Shown here piece by piece: positions 10,962 to 56,545 of a stretch of 64,000 nucleotides of DNA. Origin of the DNA: Ardenticatenales bacterium (lineage in GTDB: Bacteria > Chloroflexota > Anaerolineae > Promineifilales > Promineifilaceae). The DNA lies in assembly GCA_020634515.1 (NCBI GenBank), contig JACKBL010000001.1:145268-209267 (forward strand), given 5' to 3'. Both the position numbers and the translations under genes were made by a program. Below the pieces are notes generated by a model, which did not search any database, had not been told where the DNA came from, and saw only the letters and a list, made by a program, of their open reading frames with translations. The number at the start of each line of letters is the position of its first letter. Position 1 is the first letter of the stretch.

Positions 10962-12149
10962 TTACGGCAACTGCCCCGTAACAAAGCGGCGGGCGGTTTC
11001 GGCGAGGACGGCAGCACCAACGGGAATGACGCTCTCGTCGATGTCGAAAACGTCCGTATGGTGATGGCGGACGACTCCATCCGGTGTGGCTGCGCCGAGC
11101 ATGAACATGGCGCCTTGGGCGGCCTGGGCCATATAGGCGAAATCTTCCGCGCCCATGCCAAATTCCATGTCCGTTACGTCGTCTTCGCCGACCAGATCAA
11201 GGGCTGTCTGGCGCATCCAGTCGTTGACTTGAGGCGCGTTGTAGAGGGCGGGGTAGCCTTTGTTAATTTTTAACTCGTAGGCCCCCCCCATGAGGGTGCT
11301 GAGGCGGAGGGCGTTTTCTACTTCCGCCCAGAGCTTTTGGCGCACATCGTCGTGGTGGGAGCGGATGGTGCCTTCGAGCAGGACTTCGTTGGGGATGACG
11401 TTGGTGGTGGAGCCGCCTTCGATGTGGCCGAGGCTGACGACGCAGGGGCGCAGGGGGTTGATGAGGCGGGAGGGGATGGCGTAGAGTGCCGGCAAAATCG
11501 ACCCCAACATATGAATCGGATCAGAACCATTGTGCGGGTAAGCGCCATGCCCTCCATCGCCGCGCACCCAGGCGCGGAACGAATCAACCGCGGCCAGGCT
11601 GTACTCATCGTGGAAGAAACAGAGGCCGGCAGGCCGATCCGAGGCCACATGCAGGGCAATCACCGCGTCCAATCCGTCCAGGGCATCATCGGCGATCATG
11701 GCTGTGGCTCCGCTGACGCCATCCTCGTCGAACGCTTCTTCGGACGGTTGAAAGAGAAAGCGCACCGTGCCCCGCCACTTATCCATCTCCTCCGCCTGGC
11801 TTTGTTTGAGCAAATGGGCCACGCCCAGCAAAATGGCCGTGTGGGCGTCGTGGCCGCAGGCGTGCATCACGCCGGCATTTTGGGACGAATAGGGTCGGCC
11901 CGTTTTTTCCAAAATGGGCAGGGCATCCATGTCCGCGCGAATGCCAATAACAGGCCCGTCGCCGCTGCCGATTTCCGCGACCACGCCAGTGCGGCCCACA
12001 CCGGTGCGCGGCTGCAAACCAATTTCGCGCAGGGTGTCCGCCACCAGGGCGGCGGTGCGGAACTCCTGAAAGCTCAGCTCAGGGTGTTGATGAATGTCGC
12101 GGCGAATACGGATCAGTTCGCCGGCTATGCGTTGTGCTTTCTCTAGCAT
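10962..12149 (-). CDS. M20D-family amidohydrolase (N-acyl-amino acid amidohydrolase / hippurate hydrolase-like)
   Basis: DIHQHPELSFQEFRTAALVADTL...MHACGHDAHTAILLGVAHLL signature. Start at MLEKAQRI (ATG 12149, GGAGA RBS). The track ORF extends to 12299. Confidence 0.85.
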   Translation of the reverse strand: MLEKAQRIAGELIRIRRDIHQHPELSFQEFRTAALVADTLREIGLQPRTGVGRTGVVAEIGSGDGPVIGIRADMDALPILEKTGRPYSSQNAGVMHACGHDAHTAILLGVAHLLKQSQAEEMDKWRGTVRFLFQPSEEAFDEDGVSGATAMIADDALDGLDAVIALHVASDRPAGLCFFHDEYSLAAVDSFRAWVRGDGGHGAYPHNGSDPIHMLGSILPALYAIPSRLINPLRPCVVSLGHIEGGSTTNVIPNEVLLEGTIRSHHDDVRQKLWAEVENALRLSTLMGGAYELKINKGYPALYNAPQVNDWMRQTALDLVGEDDVTDMEFGMGAEDFAYMAQAAQGAMFMLGAATPDGVVRHHHTDVFDIDESVIPVGAAVLAETARRFVTGQLP

Positions 12150-44002: not shown

Positions 44003-44860
44003 ATGCACCGCCTGGTTCGTATTTGTGTTTTGTTCCTTTTCGTTTTCCTGCTAGCAGCCTGTGGGCAGCCCGATCCACAGGTGCTGCGGCTGGCGACGAC
44101 GACGAGTACGGATGATTCGGGTTTGCTGGGGGCGATATTGCCGGCATTTGAATCCGAATATAACGCGCGCGTGGATGTGGTCGCCGTGGGCACGGGACAA
44201 GCATTGGCGCTAGGAGAAGCGGGTGACGCGGACGTGCTGCTGGTCCATGCCCGCGCCCGCGAAGACAAGTTCCTGGCTGATGGGCACGGAACGGCTCGCT
44301 TTGATGTAATGTACAACGATTTTGTGTTGGTCGGGCCGGCGGATGATCCTGCCGGCATTCAAGGTGAAACCCTGGCCGCCGCCGCCCTTGCCCACATCGC
44401 CGCCGCCCAGGCCCCCTTTGCCTCACGCGGTGATGACAGCGGAACCCATATTAAAGAGATCAGTTTGTGGATGAATGCCGGCATCACCCCCGACCCCAAC
44501 GCCGACTGGTACGCCTCCCTCGGCCAGGGCATGGGAGCAACCCTCACCTACGCCAACGAAGTCGGCGCGTACACCCTCACGGACCGAGGCACGTTCCTGT
44601 CGCAGCAAGCCAATCTGCCCAACCTGGTCGTTATGGTCGGCGGCACGCAAATTGCCGGCAACGCCGACCCCGCCCTCCTCAACCCCTACGGCGTCCTCCT
44701 CGTCAACCCCGACAAAGGCGGCATCAACGAAGCGCTGGCCAAAGATTTCGCCGATTGGCTCACCTCCGTGGAAACGCAGCAAATCATCGCCGACTTTGGC
44801 GTAGACAAATTCGGGCAGCCCCTTTTCTACCCTGACTCACAACCGTGGCGCAACCGTTAG
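44003..44860 (+). CDS. tupA: Tungstate/molybdate-type ABC transporter substrate-binding lipoprotein (TupA/WtpA-like)
   Basis: Lipoprotein signal (LLAAC). LRLATTTSTDDSGLLGAILPAFESEYNARVDVVAVGTGQALALGEAGDADVLLVHARAREDKFL matches the TupA-family PBP. Confidence 0.8.
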   Translation: MHRLVRICVLFLFVFLLAACGQPDPQVLRLATTTSTDDSGLLGAILPAFESEYNARVDVVAVGTGQALALGEAGDADVLLVHARAREDKFLADGHGTARFDVMYNDFVLVGPADDPAGIQGETLAAAALAHIAAAQAPFASRGDDSGTHIKEISLWMNAGITPDPNADWYASLGQGMGATLTYANEVGAYTLTDRGTFLSQQANLPNLVVMVGGTQIAGNADPALLNPYGVLLVNPDKGGINEALAKDFADWLTSVETQQIIADFGVDKFGQPLFYPDSQPWRNR

Positions 44861-44884
44861 CCACGCACATTTCCGGCTTTTGAC

Positions 44885-45586
44885 ATGGATACTCTGCTGC
44901 GCGCCTTCCAGGAAGCCCTGCGCCTCCTCCTTTCCGGCGATCCGGCACTCTTCGCCGTCCTCCTCCTCACCTTGCGCGTCACGGGAACGGCCTTGCTTTT
45001 TGCCCTGCTTTTCGGACTGCCCCTGGGCACGATCCTGGGGCTAAGCCCGCGCATCCCCGCCCTGGGCCTGTTGCAACCCCTCATCTACACAGGCATGGGG
45101 CTGCCCCCCGTGGTCGTGGGCCTGTTCGTCTACCTGCTGCTCTCCAATCAAGGCGTGCTGGGCGGGTTGGACTGGTTGTTTACGCCGGCGGCCATGATCA
45201 TGGCGCAAACCATCCTTGCCCTGCCCCTGGTCGTGGGGCTGACGATGACGGCGCTCCAGGGGGTGGATATGGAGTTGCGCTTGCAGATTGTGTCGCTGGG
45301 TGCGACGCGCTGGCAATTGGCGCGGGCCGTGCTGCATGAAGCCCGCATGGGCGTGTTGGCGGCGGTCCTGGCGGCCTTCGGCGGCATCATCTCCGAAGTG
45401 GGCGCGGTAATGCTGGTCGGCGGCAACATCGCCGGTCGCACGCGCGTGTTGACCACGGCTATCGTGCTGGAGACGCGCAAAGGGGATTTCGCCCTGGCGC
45501 TGGCGCTGGGCATTATCTTGCTGTCGTTGGCGTTTTGCGCCAACCTGGCGCTTTTTCATTTACAGTGGTGGGGGAAGGGGCGATGA
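44885..45586 (+). CDS. tupB: ABC transporter permease (TupB-like)
   Basis: Multi-TM permease directly following the binding protein and overlapping the ATPase gene by 4 nt. Confidence 0.8.
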   Translation: MDTLLRAFQEALRLLLSGDPALFAVLLLTLRVTGTALLFALLFGLPLGTILGLSPRIPALGLLQPLIYTGMGLPPVVVGLFVYLLLSNQGVLGGLDWLFTPAAMIMAQTILALPLVVGLTMTALQGVDMELRLQIVSLGATRWQLARAVLHEARMGVLAAVLAAFGGIISEVGAVMLVGGNIAGRTRVLTTAIVLETRKGDFALALALGIILLSLAFCANLALFHLQWWGKGR

Positions 45587-46308
45587 GCCAGCCTCTTTAC
45601 GCGCTGGCGGACGTGCGGCAGCAGTACGATGGTCGCCAGGTGCTGCGCATTGACCGCCTCACCGTGGCGCGCGGCGAAATCCTGGCGGTGATTGGTCCCA
45701 GCGGGGCGGGCAAGAGTACGCTGCTGCGGCTGCTCAATTTTCTGGAACCCCCCGCCGCCGGCGAGATCTGCTATGAGAACAGGCCGGTTTCCTGGCCGCC
45801 GCCGTTGTCCTTGCGCCGCCAGGTGACGACGGTTTTTCAGCGTCCGGGGTTGCTCAGTCGCAGCGTTGCCGGCAATATCGCCTACGGACTCTCTTTGCGT
45901 GGACAAAAACTGCCCCAGGCGGAACAGGATCGCTGGTTAGAACGACTGGGACTGCAACACCTGGCGCGCCAGCACGCGCGCCGCCTCTCCGCCGGGGAAG
46001 CGCAGCGGGTGGCACTGGCGCGGGCGCTGGTGATGCAGCCGCGCGTGCTGCTGCTGGATGAACCGACCGCCAATCTGGACCCGTACAACGTGGGTCTGAT
46101 TGAAACGATTGTGCGCGAGGAGAATGCCGCGCGCGGCATCACCGTGGTCCTGGTGACGCACAACATCTTTCAGGCGCGGCGCGTGGCGCACCGCACGGCG
46201 CTGCTGCTGCGGGGAGAAGTGGTCGAGGTGGGGGAAACGTCGGCTTTTTTCGCGCGCCCGACACAGGCGCAAACCGCCGCCTTTCTGCGCGGCGATCTGG
46301 TGTATTGA
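45583..46308 (+). CDS. tupC: ABC transporter ATP-binding protein (TupC-like)
   Basis: Walker [10 protein letters not shown], signature LSAGEAQRV, Walker B LLLDEP. Start at MSQPLYA (ATG 45583, GGAAGGGG RBS). Confidence 0.85.
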
Positions 46309-46466: not shown

Positions 46467-47510
46467 TCAAAGCATCTGGTCCATGATTTGCGTCAGAGCG
46501 GACGCGGGTGGACGCAGTTTGTCGTCGGGGAGCAGGGCCAGCGGGTGCGTGTTCAATTCGCTCACTTCCGCGAATGAGGGGCGGCTGTCATCAAAGTAAA
46601 CCAGGCCCGTGATGAATTCGCGGTTCTGCTCCGCTTGATAAAGGCGGGCCAGCGCCCGCGCCCGGTCGGTGGGATCGTAGTCCGCTTCCAATTTGCGCAG
46701 GACGATCATGGAGCCGTCATGGAGGGCGATCTCTTTGGCTTCGCCTGGGGCGTAGTCGTCGATCATGATCTCTTCCTGCCGGGGCACGAAGTCCAGTTCA
46801 TGGAGTTGGATTTCATGCTCTTTGCCGTAGCTGTAGCTCTTGGTGGATTCGTCGTGGTTGTTGAAGGTGACGCAAGGGCTGATGATGTCCAGCACGGCGG
46901 TGCCGCGATGGTTCAGGGCGGCACTGAGGAGGGCGCGCACCTGTTTGGGATCGCCGGAGAAGGAGCGGGCGACGAAGCCACAACCGGCCTGGATGGCTTC
47001 GGCGCAGAGATCGATGGGGGGGTAGGGGTTTGTGCCGGCATATTTCAAAGTCTGACCCTGATCCGCCGTCGCCGAAAACTGCCCCTTCGTCAACCCATAC
47101 ACCCCGTTGTTCTCCACAATGTACACCAGGCGCACATTGCGGCGGCACAAATGCTTAAACTGCCCCATGCCGATGCTGCCCGTGTCCCCGTCGCCGCTGA
47201 CGCCGATGCCGCGTAGCGTATGGTTTGCCAGTAAAGCCCCCGTTGCCACTGACGGCATGCGCCCGTGCAGCGCGTTGAAACCATGCGACATGCCCAGGAA
47301 ATAAGCGGGCGACTTGCTGGAACAGCCAATGCCGCTCAACTTAACGATCTCATTCTGGCGCAGGTTCAACTCATACGCCACAGCCGTGATCTGGCTGGCA
47401 ATGGAATCATGCCCACAGCCCGCGCACAGAGTAGAAGGACGCCCCTTATAATCCGCCTGGGTCAACCCCAAAAGATTCGTTCTTGCCCCCCGTTGTGTTT
47501 GCGTCGCCAT
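46467..47510 (-). CDS. korB: 2-oxoacid:ferredoxin oxidoreductase, beta (TPP-binding) subunit
   Basis: ...TLCAGCGHDSIASQI...GIGCSSKSPAYF...GDGDTGSIGMGQFKH...NNGVYGLTKGQ... Start at MATQTQ (ATG 47510, AAGGAG RBS). Overlaps the alpha stop (TAATG). Confidence 0.85.
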   Translation of the reverse strand: MATQTQRGARTNLLGLTQADYKGRPSTLCAGCGHDSIASQITAVAYELNLRQNEIVKLSGIGCSSKSPAYFLGMSHGFNALHGRMPSVATGALLANHTLRGIGVSGDGDTGSIGMGQFKHLCRRNVRLVYIVENNGVYGLTKGQFSATADQGQTLKYAGTNPYPPIDLCAEAIQAGCGFVARSFSGDPKQVRALLSAALNHRGTAVLDIISPCVTFNNHDESTKSYSYGKEHEIQLHELDFVPRQEEIMIDDYAPGEAKEIALHDGSMIVLRKLEADYDPTDRARALARLYQAEQNREFITGLVYFDDSRPSFAEVSELNTHPLALLPDDKLRPPASALTQIMDQML

Positions 47511-49339
47511 TATGCTTGCTCCTTTTCCTGTATGGCTTCCACCACCCAACGCGCCGTCAAAGGCATTCCATCCAGATGCGCCAATGACACCAGTTTTGTG
47601 GCCATGTCCGGCATTTCCGTCGTCAGAATATTGTGCATTTGTCCATCGCGGTTTAGCTCTACCACGTAGACACGTTCATGCCGCGCCACGAAATCGCGCA
47701 CATCCCCATTGATGGGCAGTGCCCGCAGGCGCATGAAGCTCGTGGGTACGCCCGCCGCCGCCAGTCGGTCGCGGGCTTCGTCAATGGCGTACATGGTTGT
47801 GCCATAGCCGATAATGCCAATCTCCGCGCCTTCTGTTGTATCCGTTATGGGCGCGGGCACAAGCGTGCGCGCCGTATCGAATTTATGCGCCAGGCGGGCC
47901 ATATTGGCCTGCCAATGGTCGGGCCGTTCACTGTAAACGGCGGCATCATTATGTCCCGTGCCGCGGGTGAAGTACGCCGCCAGTGGGTTTTCATTGCCCG
48001 GCAGGGTGCGGTAGGCAATGCCATCCCCATCCAGGTCCCGATAGCGGGCAAATCCGTTCGCCGCCACCTCTTCCGCGCTCAAAACCTTGCCCCGCTTAAT
48101 CGGCTCGGTGGGATAGGCGAACGGCTCGGTCATCCAGTTGTTCATGCCCAGGTCCAGGTCGCTCAGGACCATCACCAGCGTTTGCAATTCGTCCGCCAGG
48201 TTCAGCGCCGTGGTGCCAAACTCAAAGCATTCGCCGACGCTGGCGGGCAGCAGCAACACGTTCTTGGTGTCGCCGTGCCCCAGGTAGTAGGCAAACAGGG
48301 TGTCGCACTGGCCGGTGCGCGTGGGCAACCCCGTGCTGGGGCCGACGCGCTGGATGTCCCAGATAACGGCGGGGATTTCGGCGAAGTAGGAGAGGCCGGC
48401 GAACTCGGCCATGAGCGAAATGCCCGGCCCGGAGGTGGCCGTCATGGCGCGCGCGCCGGCCCAACCGCCGCCAATGACCATGCCAATGGCCGCCAGTTCG
48501 TCTTCCGCCTGGATGACGACGAAGTTGTTTTCGCCTGTTTCCGGGTTGCGTCGCAGCCGGGGCAGGTAGTCGTTGAGGCTGTCCACAAGGCTGGTGGAGG
48601 GCGTGATGGGGTACCAGGCGACCAGGGAGACGCCGCCGAAGACCGCGCCCAGCGCCGCCGCTTCGTTGCCCGTGATCAGAATCTGGCCTGCCGTGGCATC
48701 CATCGGTTCGACACGATAGGGGTCTTGCTTTCGCAGATTTTCCACGGACCAGTCATAGGCCAGGCGCACGATCTGCATGTTGCTATCCACCAACTTCTGC
48801 CGCCGCCCAAAGAGATAGCCCAACGCTTCTTCGATTCTGTCCAGTTCAATACCCAGCAGGAAGGAAACCGCGCCCACGTACACCATGTTTGCCATGTAGT
48901 CGCGGATGCGCCCGCGCACGCCGGCGGCGCGCAGGAACTGGTTCACGGGGATGCCATACATGGTCACGTCGTCTCGCTGAGGAGGATTGCGCCAGTCGGC
49001 GTTGTAGATGCATACGCTGTGTGCCGGCATTTCCTGCAAATCCTGCAACGCCGTCACCTCATTGAAAGCTACCAAAATCTCCGACGTTTCCCGTCGTGCC
49101 ACATACCCCTTGTCGCTCACGCGAATCTGATACCAGGTCGGCAGTCCCTGGATATTAGACGGGAAGATATTCTTCCCATTCACGGGAATGCCCATTTTGA
49201 ACAAGGCGCGCAGCAGCGTCAGATTAGATGTCTGGCTCCCTGTTCCATTCGTCGTGGCAACGTTTATGGCGAAGTCATTTACAATAGACCTCTCCATGGC
49301 TGCCGATTCAGTTGGCGCTGTCCGCGCTTCATTGAGCAT
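47510..49339 (-). CDS. korA: 2-oxoacid:ferredoxin oxidoreductase, alpha subunit (fused gamma+alpha domains)
   Basis: 609 aa. ...SIVNDFAINVATTNGTGSQTSNL...WYPITPSTSL...[14 protein letters not shown]... AAGGAG RBS before ATG 49339. Confidence 0.85.
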   Translation of the reverse strand: MLNEARTAPTESAAMERSIVNDFAINVATTNGTGSQTSNLTLLRALFKMGIPVNGKNIFPSNIQGLPTWYQIRVSDKGYVARRETSEILVAFNEVTALQDLQEMPAHSVCIYNADWRNPPQRDDVTMYGIPVNQFLRAAGVRGRIRDYMANMVYVGAVSFLLGIELDRIEEALGYLFGRRQKLVDSNMQIVRLAYDWSVENLRKQDPYRVEPMDATAGQILITGNEAAALGAVFGGVSLVAWYPITPSTSLVDSLNDYLPRLRRNPETGENNFVVIQAEDELAAIGMVIGGGWAGARAMTATSGPGISLMAEFAGLSYFAEIPAVIWDIQRVGPSTGLPTRTGQCDTLFAYYLGHGDTKNVLLLPASVGECFEFGTTALNLADELQTLVMVLSDLDLGMNNWMTEPFAYPTEPIKRGKVLSAEEVAANGFARYRDLDGDGIAYRTLPGNENPLAAYFTRGTGHNDAAVYSERPDHWQANMARLAHKFDTARTLVPAPITDTTEGAEIGIIGYGTTMYAIDEARDRLAAAGVPTSFMRLRALPINGDVRDFVARHERVYVVELNRDGQMHNILTTEMPDMATKLVSLAHLDGMPLTARWVVEAIQEKEQA

Positions 49340-49426
49340 ATATACTCCTTTGGTAAATCATACGTAACTGCTAACCCTCTCGGGGGCTGAGCTTATCGAC
49401 GTAAACCCTACAGGTCCCCAAGACCT

Positions 49427-50971
49427 TTAGGGTTTGGTCCGAGACCCCAGATTTAGTTTCCCTTTCAAATAGTGGACCACATCGCGGAAGGAAATGATGC
49501 CGATGGGATGCCGGCGCTCGTCCACAATGGGGAGATGCCGGAAACCATGATCGGACATCAAGTGTATCGCCTCAGCGATAGGGGCGTTGTTCATCAACGT
49601 GTATGGATTGCGCGTCATGTAATCGTCTACATGCGCTTTGCTCAGGTCTTCTACCTGCCCCGCAACACGCATCAAGATGTCATACTCCGTGAGAATGCCC
49701 GACAGAACGCCGCTGTCATCCGTGACCACCACGCAGCCAATCCGGTGCGTGTTCATCATCTGCACCGCATTTGCCACCGACGTCCCCGCTTGCACCATAA
49801 TGGGCTGCTTGGGCGAAAGATTCGCCAATACATCCGTCGCCAACCACGCTTCCTCCGCTGTTGGCTCCGGTCGCTCCTGGTCCAATTCGTCCACGTAAGC
49901 TTCGTCCAGGTTGCCGGCTAATTGTCCCTGGATGCTCGGTTCAATAGTCGCGTGTTCGTCCACCGTCCAGGAATCGGCGGCGCGATACAGTTTGTCCAGG
50001 TCGCCCACGCCGCGCTGCGCCGTGGCCGTCTCAATTTGCTGGCGCAGACCTTCGCCATAGGTGGTCTTGTGGACGCGACGAATAACGCCCAGGGGTACGG
50101 GGAATTCGGGATGTTCCATGCTGCCCAGGATATAGGCCAGTTCTTTGGAGGTCTCGTCGTGAACCAGCAAGTCCGCTTCCGTAAAGCCGTTGCCCAATTC
50201 CACCACTTTCGGGCGGAAACCCTCAAGGATAATGCCTTTGTCCCGGTTCTTGCCAAATACCAGCGGCTTCCCATGTTCCAGGTAGATCAGATGGTCGTCG
50301 CGCACTTTGCGATCCGTCCATCCTTCCCACTCCGTCGGGTTGAAGATGACGCAGTTTTGATAAATCTCGACAAAGGACGAGCCTCGATGCAGGGCGGCTT
50401 CCAGCAGCGTATCTCCCAGGTGTGCGGTGTGCGCGTCCAGCGTGCGGGCGACAAACGTAGCTTCCGAAGCCAGCGCCAGGGCAATCGGGTTGATGGGCTG
50501 CTCAATGGCCCCCATGGGAGAGGACTTGGTTTTGGCTCCCTGGCGGGACGTGGGCGAGTATTGCCCTTTGGTGAGGCCGTAGATGCGGTTGTTGAAGAGG
50601 AGGATGTTCAGATTGATGTTGCGCCGCAGCGCGTGAATCAGGTGGTTGCCGCCAATGGAGAGGCCATCGCCGTCGCCGGTGATCACGAAAACGCGCAGAT
50701 CAGGATTGCTGATCGCCAGGCCGGTTGCCAGCGTGGGCGCGCGCCCGTGGATGCTGTGGATGCCGTAGGTATTCATGTAATACGGGAAGCGGCTGGAGCA
50801 GCCAATTCCGGAAATGAAGACGATGTTTTCTCGCGGGACGTTTAATTCCGGCAGCACCTTTTGTACCTGCGCCAGAATCGAATAGTCCCCACACCCGGGA
50901 CACCAGCGAACTTCCTGGTCGGAGACGAAATCTTTGCGCGAAAGGTTGAGGGGAATTGCTTGTGTGGTCAT
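49427..50971 (-). CDS. 2-oxoacid:ferredoxin oxidoreductase beta subunit fused to a C-terminal tandem CBS pair
   Basis: Residues 1-~340 are a complete beta subunit (WCPGCGDYSIL...GIGCSSRFPYY...GDGDGLSIGGNHLIH...NNRIYGLTKGQ). Residues ~385-514 carry two CBS motifs (...VQMMNTHRIGCVVVTDDSGVLSGILTEYDILMRV... and ...AIHLMSDHGFRHLPIVDERRHPIGIISFRDVV...). Confidence 0.85.
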   Translation of the reverse strand: MTTQAIPLNLSRKDFVSDQEVRWCPGCGDYSILAQVQKVLPELNVPRENIVFISGIGCSSRFPYYMNTYGIHSIHGRAPTLATGLAISNPDLRVFVITGDGDGLSIGGNHLIHALRRNINLNILLFNNRIYGLTKGQYSPTSRQGAKTKSSPMGAIEQPINPIALALASEATFVARTLDAHTAHLGDTLLEAALHRGSSFVEIYQNCVIFNPTEWEGWTDRKVRDDHLIYLEHGKPLVFGKNRDKGIILEGFRPKVVELGNGFTEADLLVHDETSKELAYILGSMEHPEFPVPLGVIRRVHKTTYGEGLRQQIETATAQRGVGDLDKLYRAADSWTVDEHATIEPSIQGQLAGNLDEAYVDELDQERPEPTAEEAWLATDVLANLSPKQPIMVQAGTSVANAVQMMNTHRIGCVVVTDDSGVLSGILTEYDILMRVAGQVEDLSKAHVDDYMTRNPYTLMNNAPIAEAIHLMSDHGFRHLPIVDERRHPIGIISFRDVVHYLKGKLNLGSRTKP

Positions 50972-50998
50972 GTCAGGACTCCATCTTGCGGATGATCG

Positions 50999-52852
50999 CT
51001 AGCTCAATATCTCGTCAATGCGGGCGCTGATCTCGCTCACGGTGAAGGGGCGGGCGTGCAGTTTGGGCAGCGACTGCACGTCCATCAGGAAACGTCCGCG
51101 CAACAAGAAGGCCAGTTGACCTGCGTTGAGTTCCGGCACGACGACGGTGTCGTAGCGGCTGAGGACGGCGCGCAGGTTGCGCGGGAAGGGGTTAATGAAG
51201 CGCAGGTGGGCGTGGGCGACGGATTGGCCGCGCTTTTGCGCCTGGCGTATGGCGGAGCGCACCGCGCCGTAAGTGCCGCCCCAGCTCAGAAACAACAATT
51301 TGCCCTGGCGCGGTCCAAACACCTCCAGCGGCGGAACGAAGTCCGCCAGGCGTTCCACTTTGGCGGCGCGTTCCGTGATCATTTGCTCATGGTGACGCGG
51401 GTCGTAGGAGACGTTGCCCGTTTGTGGCGCTTTGCTCAGGCCACCCAGGCGGTGTTCCAACCCCTCCGTGCCGGGCAGCGCCCAGGGGCGGGCCAATGTT
51501 TCAGGGTCGCGTTGGTAGGGCAGGAAGGGGGCGTCGCCGTTGCCGCGTCCCGCCGGATGGGTGACGGGGATTTCGGGGATGCCGGCAGCGTCCGGGATGC
51601 GCCACGGTTCAGAGCTGTTCGCCAGGAAGCCTTCGGAGAGGATAACGACGGGGGACATGGCGCGCACGGCCATGCGTGCCGCCCAGATGGCGATGTCGAA
51701 GCAGTCGGCGGGGCTTTGCGGGGCGACGATGGGGATGGGGCTTTCGCCATTGCGGCCAAACATCGCTTGCAGCAGATCGGCCTGCTCCGTTTTGGTGGGC
51801 AGGCCGGTGCTGGGGCCGCCGCGCTGCACGTTAATGATGATCATGGGCAGTTCCAGCATCATCGCCAGGTTCATGGCTTCGCTCTTGAGGGCGATGCCGG
51901 GGCCGCTGGTGGCGGTGACGGAGAGCGCGCCGCCAAAGGCCGCGCCAATGATGGACCCCATGGCGGCGATTTCGTCTTCCGCCTGGAAGGTGCGCACGTC
52001 GAAGTGGCGCAGCGGGGCGAGGGCGTGCAGGATGTCGCTGGCGGGCGTGATGGGGTAGCCGCCATAGAAGAGGGGCTTGCCCATTTTGCGCGCGGCGGTG
52101 ACGAGTCCCAGGCTGATGGCTTCGTTACCGGTGACTTTGCGATAGGTTCCTGCCGGCAAAGTCGCGGGCCGTACCTGGTATCTCTGACGGAAAATCTCCG
52201 TGTTCTCGCCAAAATAGTAGCCCATGCGCAGCGCCTTCAGATTCCCTTCCAGGATTTCCGGGCGTCCCGAGAATTTCTTGCGTAGCCAGGATTCCGTTGT
52301 CCCCAGTCGGCGATCAAACATCCAGAAGGTGAGGCCGAGCGCGAAGAAGTTTTGGCTGCGGTCCTTTTCTTTTGAGGACAAGCCTTCAATATCCTTCAAT
52401 GCTTCGCGGTTCAGGGATGTCAGCGGCACGGTGAGCAGGCGATAGCCTTTGAGGGAGCCGTCTTCGAGCGGGTTGGTTTCATACCCCGCCTTGCGTAAAT
52501 TTTGTTGCGTGAAGGCATCCGTGTTGACCACGATTGTGCCGCCTCTAATCAGTTCCGGTAGATTTTTCTTTAGTGCGGCGGGGTTCATGGCGATGAGGAT
52601 GGCGGGGGCGTCGCCGGGTGTGAGAATATCGGTGCTGGCAAATTGGACTTGAAAGCCGCTGACGCCGGGCAAAGTGCCGGCAGGCGCGCGAATCTCGGCG
52701 GGGAAGTCCGGCATGGTGCTCACGTCATTGCCAAAGACGGCGGACGTATTCGTAAACTGGGTTCCGGTTAGCTGCATACCATCACCGGAGTCTCCCGCAA
52801 AGCGAATCACGATAGATTCGACCTGTTCCAAAATCGGTGTGGAATCACTCAT
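50999..52852 (-). CDS. 2-oxoacid:ferredoxin oxidoreductase, alpha subunit (second paralogue)
   Basis: 617 aa. ...[19 protein letters not shown]...[12 protein letters not shown]...[16 protein letters not shown]... It is a paralogue of 47510-49339. Confidence 0.85.
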
Positions 52853-52921
52853 TGTGGTTTGTCTCCATGAAAAGGACGAATGACGAAAAGCGCGTATCGC
52901 TGCGTCGCGCGCGCGGCGTGA

Positions 52922-53386
52922 TCAGCCGCCTTCCGGCGTGCTGGCGACCAGGTCGGGCGCGGGCGGGCGGTTGAGGACGACGGTCGGGTAGCGCGCCGCC
53001 AGATAGTCGAGAATGCACTTGTGCGTCATATTGCCCACAATTTTGCCCGTGACATCGACGACGGGCAGGTTACGAATGCCCTTGCGGTCCATGAGCCAGA
53101 GCGCATCGGCGGCGGGGAAATCGGGCGTGACGGTGATCGGGTCAGGCGTCATGATGCTGGTCACGAGCTGGTGCAGGTTGTCGCCGCCGATGACCTTGCG
53201 CAAGATGTCTCGCTCCGTCACGATGCCTACGAGTTTGTTTGCGGACAGGACGAGGCATGTGTGATGATGTTCGGCGCGCATGCCGGCAATAGCCGCGCCT
53301 ATTGTGGTATCGCTGGTGACGCGGCTGAAATCCGTTAGATTGAGATGTTGCACTTGTTCGGTTTGGAGTTCTTCGCGGAGGGTCAT
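52922..53386 (-). CDS. Stand-alone CBS-pair protein
   Basis: 154 aa with two CBS motifs (...HHTCLVLSANKLVGIVTERDILRKV... and ...GIRNLPVVDVTGKIVGNMTHKCILDYL...). Overlaps the downstream GntR gene by 4 nt. Confidence 0.8.
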   Translation of the reverse strand: MTLREELQTEQVQHLNLTDFSRVTSDTTIGAAIAGMRAEHHHTCLVLSANKLVGIVTERDILRKVIGGDNLHQLVTSIMTPDPITVTPDFPAADALWLMDRKGIRNLPVVDVTGKIVGNMTHKCILDYLAARYPTVVLNRPPAPDLVASTPEGG

Positions 53387-54093
53387 GGTGTTTCCTGGGT
53401 GGGGGAATGGGGTGTTGTTACGACGGGGGGGAGAGACAAGGTGGGAAGGAGTTTGAAGTGGGCAACCAATAGTTCCAGGCCCTCGTCAAAATCGTCGCGG
53501 CACAATGCATCCACAATGCGCTCGTGATAGTCCCATACGCGCAACCAGTAGCCGTAGTCCGCCAGCCGCGTCAGTTCGCTGGCTTCGTAGGCTTCCCAAT
53601 AGGCATTGAGGATGCCGCGCACAAATGGGTTTTCGAGATGGGTGAAGATGGTCATGTGCAGGTCGCGGTGTTCTCGATTGGGCACATGGACGGGTTCGCC
53701 GCGCAGTTTGCTCCAGGCGTTGTCGATGATGGCGCGTAACTGTGTTTTGTCGGCGGGTGTGAGTTTGACGACGGCTTCCGGCCACATGGCGGCTTCCAGG
53801 GTCTGGCGCAGTTGGCTGAACTGCATGAAACTGGCTTCGCCCGTGGCCATGCTGTAGAGGAGGCTGGGGAGAACTGCCGGCATAAAATCAAACGGTTCAC
53901 GCTTCATGCCCACCCGCGGGCGAATCGAAATAAGCCCCAAATGGCGCGCGAACTCAAGCTGCTCGCGCAGTTTCCCTACGCTCACGCCCATTTCCGCGCC
54001 AATATCCGCCAACGTAGGTAGCGTTTCCCCGTTGGTGGCCGGGTGTTCCGCCAGGTATCTGAGAAAGTCGGGTTTGAGTTTGCTTAGCTGCAT
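53383..54093 (-). CDS. GntR-family transcriptional regulator with FCD-type C-terminal domain
   Basis: wHTH: LPTLADIGAEMGVSVGKLREQLEFARHLGLISIRPRVG. Alpha-helical C-terminal domain. Confidence 0.75.
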   Translation of the reverse strand: MQLSKLKPDFLRYLAEHPATNGETLPTLADIGAEMGVSVGKLREQLEFARHLGLISIRPRVGMKREPFDFMPAVLPSLLYSMATGEASFMQFSQLRQTLEAAMWPEAVVKLTPADKTQLRAIIDNAWSKLRGEPVHVPNREHRDLHMTIFTHLENPFVRGILNAYWEAYEASELTRLADYGYWLRVWDYHERIVDALCRDDFDEGLELLVAHFKLLPTLSLPPVVTTPHSPTQETP

Positions 54094-54450
54094 ACGCGCG
54101 TTTTAGTTCCCCCAAAGATTGGTTCATTCTTTGAGCCTGCCGAAGGCAATATGGGCACGGGCTTCGAAAAGATCAACCCACGAATGGGTTAGCGGCCGCA
54201 TTTATCCGATAAATCCGATTTATCCACAAGGAATGTAGTATATCAAGGTTTTCTAGGGTGGGCAATGGAAAAATAGGCGTTTAGTGGGTTCGTTACTGTT
54301 CCGCCGTACCTGTACCAACAAACCTACCCGGAAGGCAACGACCTGGCCCGTTGCTTGAGCTTGCCGAAGGCCATGTGGGCGTCAACAGGGGCTTTGACAA
54401 GGGCTTTGGCAAGCGCGGCCCACGGGCGGGCTAGCTGCCACCATGTGGGT

Positions 54451-55059
54451 CTAATAATAGCGTGCAACCTCCGCCGGCGGGCGACGGGTTTTGCGTTTGC
54501 TTTCGGCGGGGAAACCCAGCGTAATCAGGCCCTGCGGCTGCCAGTCGTCCGGCAGGTCCAGCGCCAGGCGCACCACATCCGGGCAGAAAAGAGGCGCGCA
54601 CATCCAGCACGCCCCCAACCCGAGGGCGTGCGCCGCCAGCAGCAGATTTTGCCCGGCCATGGCCGTGCTTTGCACGGCCATCACCCATTCATGCCGGCGG
54701 CGCGCTTCGTCAGGATAATTGTCCATATCCACGAGGCTGAGGCAAAGGAGGATGAGGGCGGGGGCAGCGGTGATGCGTTCGTAGGAGCGACCGGCGTCCT
54801 GCTCAATGATGGCGGGGGGCACGCCATCGGCGGCCAGGTCGGCGCGCAGCCGCTGGCCCATGGCCGCGGCCAGTTTCTGCTTGATGGCGTCGTTTTGGAT
54901 GACGGCGAAGCGCCACGGCTGGCGGTTGTGCGCGGAGGGGGCCCAGATGCCGGCATTAAGCAGTTGGTCCAGCAGCGATGGGGGCAGTGGCTCCGGGCGA
55001 TAGCGGCGGATGGAACGGCGCTCGCGCAGCCAGTTTACGGGATCGGCGGGAGGGGGCAT
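54451..55059 (-). CDS. Nitroreductase-family protein
   Basis: ...RRSIRRYRPEPLPPSLLDQLLNAGIWAPSAHNRQPWRFAVI... Start uncertain: ATG 55059 or ATG 55134. Confidence 0.75.
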   Translation of the reverse strand: MPPPADPVNWLRERRSIRRYRPEPLPPSLLDQLLNAGIWAPSAHNRQPWRFAVIQNDAIKQKLAAAMGQRLRADLAADGVPPAIIEQDAGRSYERITAAPALILLCLSLVDMDNYPDEARRRHEWVMAVQSTAMAGQNLLLAAHALGLGACWMCAPLFCPDVVRLALDLPDDWQPQGLITLGFPAESKRKTRRPPAEVARYY

Positions 55060-55069
55060 GGCGTGACTA

Positions 55070-55894
55070 TTAGGGGGTGCGGGGTTGCCGGCAAATAAAG
55101 ACGCCGGACAATTTGCTGACGTGGAACGCGCCATGTTCGGCGATGTGTTGCCGCAGTATTTGCGTCAGGGTTGCAACCAGGTCATCCCAGGTGACGCCTG
55201 ACGGCAGCATCTGTTCAATTCGTGCGCGTGTCGTTGCCAGGTAGTCAATGACGGGCTGGGGTTGGGGGAAGACGAAGGCGGCGTGCAGATCAAACCGTTC
55301 GACGTGGGCGAAATGGCGTACCAAAGCAGGCGTACCGTTTTCCAGGCCAAAGGCGTTGCCGGCATTTTGCCAGATCGTTTGCGGTCCTGTTCCCCCCAGA
55401 CGCCGGATGGCGTCCTGGCGCAGGTGATTCAATTCAGCCATGGATTGAGCGCTGTTGGTGACGGCCAACAGGCAGCCAGTGGGCCGCAGGACGCGGGCGA
55501 TTTCCGCCAGGGCGGCGCCGCGGTCGGGGACATGATAGAGCATGTGGTTGGCGAGGACCACGTCGAAGGCGTGGCCGGCGAGCGGGAGGCGTTGCGCGTC
55601 CAGATTAACGCGGTCGGGGGGCGGGGCCGGCAGTCCGCGGAGCATCCCCAGCGAGAGGTCGGCGGCGATGTAGTGGCCGCACCGCTGCCGTGCCGCCGCG
55701 ACGTAGCCGCCAGAGCCGCAGCCCACATCGATGACGCGCTCCGTGCCGTGCCAGGGGATTTTGTCTAGGACCCAGGCGGTGAAGTCTACCTGGGGCACGG
55801 TGTACAGGGCGTGCGTGCGAATGCGGACGTTGAGGTTTTCGTCGTTTTGGTATTGTTGTTTGACGTAGGCGACGTCGTCGCTGCGAATGGTCAT
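55070..55894 (-). CDS. Class I SAM-dependent methyltransferase (Methyltransf_11/25-like)
   Basis: ...RVIDVGCGSGGYVAAA... (motif I), ...FDVVLANHMLYHVPD..., ...VLRPTGCLLAV... Start at MTIRSDD (ATG 55894, AGGAG RBS). Confidence 0.8.
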   Translation of the reverse strand: MTIRSDDVAYVKQQYQNDENLNVRIRTHALYTVPQVDFTAWVLDKIPWHGTERVIDVGCGSGGYVAAARQRCGHYIAADLSLGMLRGLPAPPPDRVNLDAQRLPLAGHAFDVVLANHMLYHVPDRGAALAEIARVLRPTGCLLAVTNSAQSMAELNHLRQDAIRRLGGTGPQTIWQNAGNAFGLENGTPALVRHFAHVERFDLHAAFVFPQPQPVIDYLATTRARIEQMLPSGVTWDDLVATLTQILRQHIAEHGAFHVSKLSGVFICRQPRTP

Positions 55895-55904
55895 GGGTAC
55901 TCCT

Positions 55905-56000
55905 GGAAAATGCCGAAAGGCCAAAAACCGGGTTTTTACACATGAACCACTCTGGTAATTTCGGCCGGACACTCGAAAAACCCGGTTTTTTCAGTGAACT
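55905..56000. terminator. Long hairpin made of complementary AAAAACCGGGTTTTT / AAAAACCCGGTTTTT units (same family as 3867-3941)
   Basis: The units sit about 45 nt apart, between the GNAT stop and the methyltransferase start on the minus strand. Confidence 0.45.
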
Positions 56001-56545
56001 CACGAATCAATAACCAGCAAACGTTCCAATATGATACCCGTTTTGCCCGTCTGTGGCAGTCGGATTTCCCGGCTGATAGTGAAACCCAACCGCTGGTAAA
56101 GGGCCAGGGCGCGGACATTATCCGGCATCACGCCAATCTCCAGGAGAGGCCGGCGCATGTGGCGGGCGATGTTCGTGAGGACGGCGATCAGAGCCGTGCC
56201 GATGCCCTGGTCGCGGTAGGCTGGGGCAACCAACAGATCGGCGATTTCGGCGGCGTTGGCATAAATCTGAAGCTGACCACGCCCTACGATAGCCTCCTGA
56301 ACCGTGGCGATGAGAGGGAAGCAGCGCCCCCGGGTATAAGCGGCGAGCGCGCGGAGGCACGCTTCGTCGAAAGCGCGAAAAGGGTGGTCGGGATAGCAGG
56401 CGGCGTGCAAGGGACGGATGTCGGCGGGCCGCAGGGGGCGGATGATCAGCCTGGGGGGGGCAGGAGGCGGGGGCGTAAGGAGAAACGGGGGCAACGATTC
56501 CTCCGCGTTTTTTGGGCGTCGCGGATCATCCGTTGATGGGGCCAT
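56000..56545 (-). CDS. GNAT-family N-acetyltransferase
   Basis: ...LLVAPAYRDQGIGTALIAVLTNIARHMRRPLLEIGVMPDNVRALALYQRLGF... acetyl-CoA binding motif (Q/RxxGxG/A). Confidence 0.8.
   Translation of the reverse strand: MAPSTDDPRRPKNAEESLPPFLLTPPPPAPPRLIIRPLRPADIRPLHAACYPDHPFRAFDEACLRALAAYTRGRCFPLIATVQEAIVGRGQLQIYANAAEIADLLVAPAYRDQGIGTALIAVLTNIARHMRRPLLEIGVMPDNVRALALYQRLGFTISREIRLPQTGKTGIILERLLVIDS

Follow-up and report, generated by a model that had tools for sequence, protein, structure and literature searches.

The window analysed here is a stretch of 64,000 nucleotides from an Ardenticatenales bacterium (assembly GCA_020634515.1, contig JACKBL010000001.1, positions 145,268 to 209,267). It contains an operon-like group of genes for a 2-oxoacid:ferredoxin oxidoreductase (OFOR) together with two Bateman modules, that is, pairs of CBS domains. 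One of these modules is fused to the C-terminus of the beta subunit (KorB), and the other is a free protein encoded directly upstream of the alpha subunit (KorA). From the analysis of sequences and predicted structures, we favour with moderate confidence the interpretation that this is an OFOR of the KorAB or 2-oxoglutarate:ferredoxin oxidoreductase (OGOR) type, with two dedicated Bateman modules, and that it would be allosterically controlled by an adenosine-containing ligand. The pairing of KorAB with two CBS sensors is conserved and phylogenetically broad, which suggests that the oxidation of 2-oxoacids or the fixation of CO2 is controlled directly and after translation.

Gene organization of the locus

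The locus comprises six co-directional open reading frames (ORFs) of the minus strand. Their coordinates, checked against the ORFs of the window and by Pfam and NCBIfam scans, agree with those of a preliminary description made from the letters alone. From upstream to downstream they encode a GntR regulator of the FadR subfamily (53383-54093); a free CBS-pair protein of 154 aa (52922-53386; two PF00571 domains, E 2.7e-24); a KorA-type alpha subunit of 617 aa (alpha1, 50999-52852) with the domain order III-I-II and matches to POR, POR_N and PFOR_II; the fused beta subunit of 514 aa (beta1 or KorB~CBS, 49427-50971); and a second OFOR made up of alpha2 (47510-49339, 609 aa) and beta2 (46467-47510, 347 aa counted from the ATG), the latter with TPP_enzyme_C and PFO_beta_C domains and without a CBS domain. 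The spacing of the six genes is operon-like: the stop codon of the regulator gene and the start of the free CBS gene overlap in an ATGA, the gaps between the free CBS gene and alpha1, alpha1 and beta1, and beta1 and alpha2 are of 69, 27 and 87 nt, respectively, and the alpha2 and beta2 genes overlap in TAATG. That two OFOR alpha/beta pairs lie on the same strand, and that genes for a free-standing CBS pair and a GntR regulator precede them, had already been proposed; the first point was borne out by the ORFs and domain scans and the second by Pfam matches.

The KorB~CBS fusion

The beta1 protein consists of a KorB core (aa 1-331; 49979-50971, minus strand), an acidic linker (aa 332-375; 49847-49978) and a Bateman module formed by CBS1 and CBS2 (aa 376-514; 49430-49846). 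TPP_enzyme_C matched residues 56-203 (E 2.6e-29). The C-terminal extension, in which a CBS pair had been recognized by eye, was readily detected by the CBS profile, with two PF00571 domains at about residues 385-503 (96 bits, E 1.6e-27). Linker and Bateman module make beta1 approximately 170 aa longer than the beta subunits of known two-subunit OFORs.

Since korB and the CBS gene are separate in many phyla, with a short gap or an overlap between them, the fusion might be an artefact: a frameshift or a faulty assembly could have linked korB to the CBS gene behind it, or the domain match could be due to chance. The probability of this is negligible in view of the following data. The beta1 ORF is uninterrupted, and the identical 514-aa protein (MCA9940105.1 / MCB8950528.1, from an Anaerolineales/Ardenticatenales metagenome-assembled genome, MAG) is found at NCBI on 17 contigs of several sources. 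The best 120 homologue clusters are all of 501-535 aa, share 64-74% identity and combine PF02775 with PF00571, so that this architecture is common to at least 120 clusters, coming from Anaerolineales, Ardenticatenaceae, Caldilineaceae, Promineifilaceae/Leptofilum and other Chloroflexota. These clusters and the identical protein exclude a frameshift origin for this lineage. In addition, an exhaustive search of the 50%-identity representatives for fused KorB yielded at least five full-length fused clusters (P0121, P0123, P0124, P0125 and P0135), some of them only 47% identical to the query, indicating that divergent fused clades exist as well. The E-value of the CBS match and the conserved motifs within the linker also speak against an artefact. 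The alternation of fused and separate korB and CBS genes across phyla is a true evolutionary pattern of fusion and fission and not a sequencing error.

An AlphaFold2 model of beta1, built on an alignment of 48 sequences, was mostly confident for the KorB core, with low confidence at the N-terminus and at residues ~131-160. The Bateman module reached values of the predicted local distance difference test (pLDDT) of ~83-94 over residues 380-510, and these fell below 50 at residues 332-355 of the linker. The model is consistent with a flexible, disordered and acidic linker of ~45 aa. Its residues D333, W335, G349 and Y359 do not vary between the Chloroflexota orthologues, and it contains two conserved short motifs, ADxWTV and LDEEYVDE. 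When beta1 was aligned with zinc-ribbon proteins, the linker occupied the position at which unfused relatives carry a zinc ribbon. Both ribose motifs of the fused module, GILTEYD and GIISFRD, are intact and follow the canonical G-h-h-T/S-x-x-D pattern.

At NCBI the product name of this protein (MCA9940105.1) is merely 'CBS domain-containing protein'. This name hides the catalytic identity of beta1, and pathway reconstructions relying on product names would consequently miss the beta subunit. When long KorB homologues were checked for other accessory domains, none was recurrent, and most of these proteins look like miscalled metagenome genes.

Conservation of the CBS genes around korAB

The distribution of the fusion was studied in 80 loci, designated by L numbers, which were obtained by scanning with the fused protein, one genome per species, and annotated with the window proteins. 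Across approximately 200 related loci from at least eight phyla, a recurring gene order was found: a CBS protein of the kind encoded upstream of alpha1 (tail-type, for its conserved C-terminal tail), korA, korB and a second CBS protein that carries a zinc ribbon (ribbon-type). Among the 80 loci, the downstream CBS module was fused to KorB in 10, namely Chloroflexota loci L001-L007 and one MAG each of Latescibacterota, betaproteobacteria and Planctomycetota. A separate downstream CBS gene was present in 18, at 150-330 nt from the end of the KorB core; its carriers were Pirellulales and other Planctomycetota, Phycisphaerae, Vicinamibacterales and Pyrinomonadaceae (Acidobacteriota), Latescibacterota, Omnitrophota, Elusimicrobiota and Filomicrobium. 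The two CBS components tended to be present or absent together: both were found in 23 loci (and also in L070, where both are upstream), neither in 35, and three loci were discordant. No other conserved neighbour genes, such as those for ferredoxin or succinyl-CoA synthetase, were found beyond the four genes of the cassette in these loci; the alpha2 of the second OFOR is kept downstream in L001-L003.

The phmmer scores showed that the fused CBS module is orthologous to the ribbon-type downstream proteins and not to the tail type. In a neighbour-joining tree of KorB the fused forms fell into at least two separate clades, and it follows that the fusion arose more than once. The Chloroflexota fused the second CBS protein to KorB and lost its zinc ribbon, and their fusion is a derived form of the four-gene cassette.

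An independent scan of metagenomes, seeded by nothing but a degenerate DNA pattern encoding the tail sequence F-P-x-x-V-Y-N-L-P-P-x-P, gave 120 loci. The pattern lay at the C-terminus of a CBS ORF in 113 of these 120. A korA homologue was directly downstream in 99 of the 107 loci having at least 450 nt of downstream sequence, and a ribbon-type CBS gene followed korB in 17 of the 18 with a complete korB and enough flanking sequence. The free CBS protein is no bystander but an obligate partner. It belongs to a family whose genes, with few exceptions, lie immediately upstream of korA. Tail-type and ribbon-type modules are distinct, specialised and nearly exclusive to the KorAB-type enzyme.

Two variations of the arrangement were also observed. 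In a Poribacteria locus (L070, 6843-7957) both CBS genes precede korA, which is an alternative order of the same four-part set. In Pyrinomonadaceae loci (L037, L038, L040, L044, L050 and others) korA and korB are separated by a gap of ~600-1200 nt, whereas their spacing is tight elsewhere.

Tail-type and ribbon-type CBS proteins

In the free CBS protein of the window the Bateman module spans approximately residues 10-132 (85.7 bits) and is followed by the conserved C-terminal tail (residues 132-154; 52925-52993, minus strand; RYPTVVLNRPPAPDLVASTPEGG). Across phyla, the alignment of tail-type proteins gave the consensus end [YF]-P-x-x-V-x-N-x-P-P-x-P-(6-8 aa)-[RK]-[ED]-G-[AG]-COOH. The window protein ends in E-G-G, and P134, P142 and G153 are among its most conserved positions. 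The first CBS domain of the tail type keeps the motif G-I-[FV]-T-[ED]-R-D, intact in the window as GIVTERD, and the second usually lacks the ribose-binding Asp, the window protein having GNMTHKC. The AlphaFold2 model of the free protein had pLDDT values of 82-90 in the module; over the final ~14 tail residues they were 50-57, as might be expected of a peptide that takes on order only upon binding a partner. No fusion between a tail-type CBS protein and KorA was found in 200 loci, despite more than 100 adjacencies of their genes, and this suggests that the free C-terminus matters. A Foldseek search with the model of the free protein gave probability 1.0 to many CBS-pair structures. AcuB, IMPDH and CcpN were among the matches, which were generic CBS pairs and did not indicate a class of ligand.

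The ribbon-type proteins begin with C-P-x-C-G-x-x-N-[IL]-x-G-x-[DE]-x-C-x-x-C, and both of their CBS motifs are canonical. They were identified in loci L009, L010, L017, L019, L020, L024, L026, L031-L033, L043, L046, L050, L051, L055, L058 and L080. In Pfam the ribbon motif matches Zn_Ribbon_1 and DZR only below threshold. The fused betaproteobacterial protein (L011) retains the ribbon inside the linker; the Chloroflexota fusions have the acidic LDEEYVDE segment in its place, and the window linker is devoid of a Cys motif. A CBS pair with a four-Cys ribbon is also known from Thermoplasma TA0289 (1pvm/2qh1) and the Pyrococcus protein 3ghd, which were among the sequence matches of the fused module. 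In these TA0289-like proteins the ribbon is C-terminal, unlike the N-terminal ribbon of the KorAB-associated proteins and the window protein, which has none. The tail-type and ribbon-type proteins define two recognisable new CBS subfamilies, currently annotated just as 'CBS domain-containing protein'.

The oxidoreductase and its probable substrate

The first OFOR of the locus looks functional. It belongs to the two-subunit OFOR family, of which every defining feature that was tested is present, and is predicted to be a KorAB/OGOR-type enzyme with a single [4Fe-4S] cluster. Against the cut-off of 483 bits of TIGR03710, alpha1 scored 624 and alpha2 527. For TIGR02177 (cut-off 262 bits) beta1 scored 265 and beta2 188; although below this cut-off, beta2 keeps the same Cys and thiamine pyrophosphate (TPP) motifs as beta1. 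The KorB core of beta1 carries the TPP-binding GDGD...NN motif, and its C24, C27, C58 and C207 align with Cys12, Cys15, Cys46 and Cys197, the [4Fe-4S] ligands of the StOFOR2 beta subunit. The alpha1 subunit has the YPITP motif and an Arg344 aligned to Arg344a of StOFOR1, which is the essential Arg for the substrate carboxylate (PMC5020499). The alpha2 subunit shows the motifs WYPITPSTS, which includes YPITP, and QRVGPSTG.

As relatives of solved structure, the single-cluster (alpha-beta)2 enzymes MmOGOR of Magnetococcus marinus (6n2n) and StOFOR1/2 of Sulfolobus tokodaii (5b46-5b48) come closest, the best match of alpha1 being 6n2n_A, the alpha subunit of MmOGOR (E 3e-65). Like these and the KorAB of Hydrogenobacter thermophilus, the window enzyme has an alpha subunit of the III-I-II order with YPITP and Arg344, a TPP-binding beta subunit with one four-Cys [4Fe-4S] cluster, and no internal ferredoxin domain. 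The solved or characterised two-subunit OFORs differ from it in having neither a CBS domain nor a CBS partner, while the window operon has both.

Two residues are suggestive of 2-oxoglutarate as the likely substrate of the first OFOR. Arg61 of beta1 lies within CSSR, as in the beta subunit of MmOGOR, and alpha1 has Leu at the position of Asp468a of StOFOR1, matching MmOGOR and also the KorA of H. thermophilus (PMC5020499). By comparison, beta2 has Lys where StOFOR1 has Lys49b, like the broad-specificity StOFORs. No equivalog model reached its cut-off for the OFOR subunits in the NCBIfam scan. A recent tandem duplication of the two pairs was rejected, because identities of 26% between alpha1 and alpha2 and of 40% between beta1 and beta2 correspond to old paralogues.

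Proposed function of the Bateman modules and alternative explanations

From the gene anatomy, the fusion, the conservation and co-occurrence of the genes and their motifs, we infer complex formation, a bound ligand and a regulatory effect as follows. The (alpha-beta)2 enzyme would carry the tail-type and the second CBS modules, probably joined in a heteromeric disc of four CBS domains, with the tail and the linker or ribbon acting as docking elements. The modules would bind an adenosine-containing metabolite, for which AMP/ADP/ATP, coenzyme A (CoA) or succinyl-CoA, NAD(H) and S-adenosylmethionine (SAM) are candidates, and its binding would tune catalysis or the exchange of electrons with ferredoxin. 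The direct control by AMP, ATP or SAM proposed in the preliminary description is plausible in view of the intact CBS motifs; sensing of CoA or succinyl-CoA, of NAD(H) or of the redox state may be considered equally. CoA and succinyl-CoA are as plausible as AMP, ATP and SAM because they are adenosine derivatives and also substrate or product of the enzyme. Over both modules there are three canonical ligand sites and one degenerate site. This resembles the gamma subunit of AMPK, which has four CBS domains and one degenerate site.

Several points weigh against this proposal. Gene order, co-occurrence and fusion are what suggests a physical association of the CBS proteins with KorAB and with each other. 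CBS motifs cannot tell ligands apart, and there are CBS pairs without any ligand. In roughly half of its close orthologues KorAB does without a CBS partner, which makes the modules accessory. Moreover, a column-by-column comparison of CBS-associated and CBS-free KorA and KorB gave no clean separating signature, with just a weak, small loop insertion near KorA residues 436-440, and consequently no docking surface was identified. As for the substrate, the assignment to 2-oxoglutarate draws on the two residues mentioned above and on similarity at the family level, and the alpha1/beta1 and alpha2/beta2 pairs are equally distant from MmOGOR.

The main rival of allosteric control is that the CBS modules are devices of redox or oxygen protection, or of assembly, instead of metabolite sensors, which we consider unlikely but deserving attention. 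They could shield or gate the exposed [4Fe-4S]/ferredoxin site of an O2-sensitive enzyme, with the ribbon cysteines as a redox switch. The conserved four-Cys ribbon of the unfused second CBS protein would agree with this, as would the fact that the cassette occurs in Planctomycetota, Acidobacteriota and Chloroflexota, phyla with many aerobic members. A precedent is found in Desulfovibrio africanus, whose pyruvate:ferredoxin oxidoreductase has a C-terminal extension with a disulfide switch. Two-subunit OFORs have, furthermore, a single cluster near the surface and no internal ferredoxin domain (PMC5020499). However, the fused form of the window lost the ribbon cysteines and nevertheless keeps the CBS pair with its ribose-binding motifs intact, no conserved redox motif is present in the tail-type protein, and CBS pairs are best known for binding adenosyl ligands.

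It is also conceivable, with a far lower probability than a redox role, that transcription and not the enzyme is the target of the CBS proteins, which would then serve the FadR/GntR regulator as co-sensors. In the window, translation of the free CBS gene is coupled to that of the regulator gene through their ATGA overlap, JGI labels some orthologues as 'predicted transcriptional regulator', and transcription factors containing CBS domains exist, CcpN being one of the fold matches mentioned above. Nevertheless, one of the modules is covalently fused to the enzyme, and the linkage of tail-type CBS genes to korA extends to at least eight phyla without the regulator. A purely transcriptional role is unlikely because the regulator occurs in Chloroflexota loci only and a DNA-binding domain is absent, by Pfam, from both CBS proteins.

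Relation to known systems

Full-text literature searches, most of them combining CBS or Bateman with OFOR or kor, found no description of an association of CBS domains with an OFOR or KorAB-type enzyme. In the PDB, no entry matched by alpha1 also holds a CBS chain, and none of the matched solved OFOR entries contains one. The suggestion that the fusion is an undescribed architecture holds as regards this literature, but not as regards the databases, in which it is abundant in several phyla. It has been deposited many times under generic names ('CBS domain-containing protein', 'korB'), and is consequently catalogued but not interpreted. The dedicated association of Bateman modules with an OFOR is the part of the system that has no known counterpart and is apparently undescribed.

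IMPDH, CBS-pyrophosphatase, AMPK gamma, AcuB and plant CBSX are likewise cases in which a Bateman module is attached to a metabolic enzyme or accompanies it as a partner. The canonical G-h-h-T/S-x-x-D ribose motifs are shared as well, and the fold agrees with that of CBS structures with bound nucleotide, AcuB and IMPDH among them. The window system differs from the known CBS-regulated enzymes in its target, a TPP and Fe-S OFOR, which would be a new class, and in having two distinct specialised families of modules.

A broader and more tentative proposal, to which we give somewhat less than even credence, is that KorAB is a four-component holoenzyme in many phyla, in which a docked heteromeric Bateman disc, made of the tail-type and the ribbon-type or fused modules, gates catalysis or electron transfer to ferredoxin. 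These phyla would include Planctomycetota, Acidobacteriota, Chloroflexota, Latescibacterota, Omnitrophota, Elusimicrobiota and Poribacteria, and the cues perceived by the disc could be the energy charge, the CoA/succinyl-CoA ratio or the redox state. OFORs couple central carbon metabolism to low-potential ferredoxin and, in the reverse direction, can fix CO2. To our knowledge and as far as could be found, no regulation at the level of the protein is attributed to them. If the proposal is true, the disc would be the first allosteric regulator dedicated to an OFOR and a hitherto unrecognised control point of a branch of the tricarboxylic acid cycle or its reverse in abundant environmental bacteria. 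One of the CBS proteins has been fused to the enzyme repeatedly, and the lineages carrying the cassette dominate soils, sediments and wastewater systems. The cassette also offers a testable system for the communication between a Bateman module and an Fe-S and TPP enzyme.

Regulator, operator and transcription units

In the regulator (53383-54093) the FCD domain scored 53.7 bits (E 3.5e-14; cut-off 24.3) and the GntR helix-turn-helix 20.6 bits, below its cut-off of 27. The combination of a GntR winged helix with FCD places it by sequence in the FadR subfamily, in agreement with its NCBI product name, 'FadR family transcriptional regulator'. Its position upstream of the cassette is conserved only in the Chloroflexota loci L001-L004.

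A sigma-70-like promoter candidate with a TG extension (TTGCCC-17-TATACT; 54237-54265, minus strand) was located upstream of the regulator gene by match to the consensus alone, in a region where the counts of such sites showed no excess over shuffled sequence. Just past it, two overlapping perfect palindromes (54200-54224; ATAAAT-CGG-ATTTAT and ATTTAT-CGG-ATAAAT) are a good candidate for the operator and probably are the binding site of the FadR-type regulator. In L001-L004, where the orthologous regulator genes are likewise preceded by a -10-like box, this box is followed by a related element, as ATTTAT-N3-ATAAAT in L003 and L004 and as the half-matching ATTTATTGGATCATT in L001 and L002. In the pdhR-aceEF-lpd operon, a FadR-family regulator is the first gene of an operon for a 2-oxoacid-oxidising enzyme. 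The window has the same layout, with the FadR-subfamily gene leading and the conserved palindrome behind the promoter candidate, and the regulator would probably repress the operon through this palindrome, as in pdhR-aceEF. Two differences are that the enzyme of the window is an OFOR and not a dehydrogenase complex, and that the candidate operator ATTTAT-N3-ATAAAT is unlike the known FadR and PdhR boxes.

A stable RNA hairpin (49398-49439, minus strand; -21.5 kcal/mol, z -3.4), lacking a U-tract, is predicted over the stop codon of korB~CBS. At the same intergenic position between korB~CBS and alpha2, L001 (~11558-11610) and L002 (~11558-11605) have a canonical terminator with a hairpin and a T-run. 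The window hairpin and these terminators indicate that the second OFOR, paralogous and devoid of CBS domains, is probably a separate or attenuated transcription unit. An Rfam scan of the 45.5-55.5 kb region gave nothing meaningful.

Neighbouring genes

On the plus strand, and converging on the second OFOR, genes of an ABC transporter (a PBP_like_2 binding protein, a permease and an ATPase) are located at 44003-46308. The transporter resembles those for uptake of tungstate, molybdate or phosphate; a functional link to the OFOR is without evidence. Upstream of the operon, at 54451-56545 on the minus strand, there are genes encoding a nitroreductase-family protein, a SAM-methyltransferase and a GNAT acetyltransferase. 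The nitroreductase gene is the upstream neighbour in loci L003 and L004 as well, which indicates conserved synteny.

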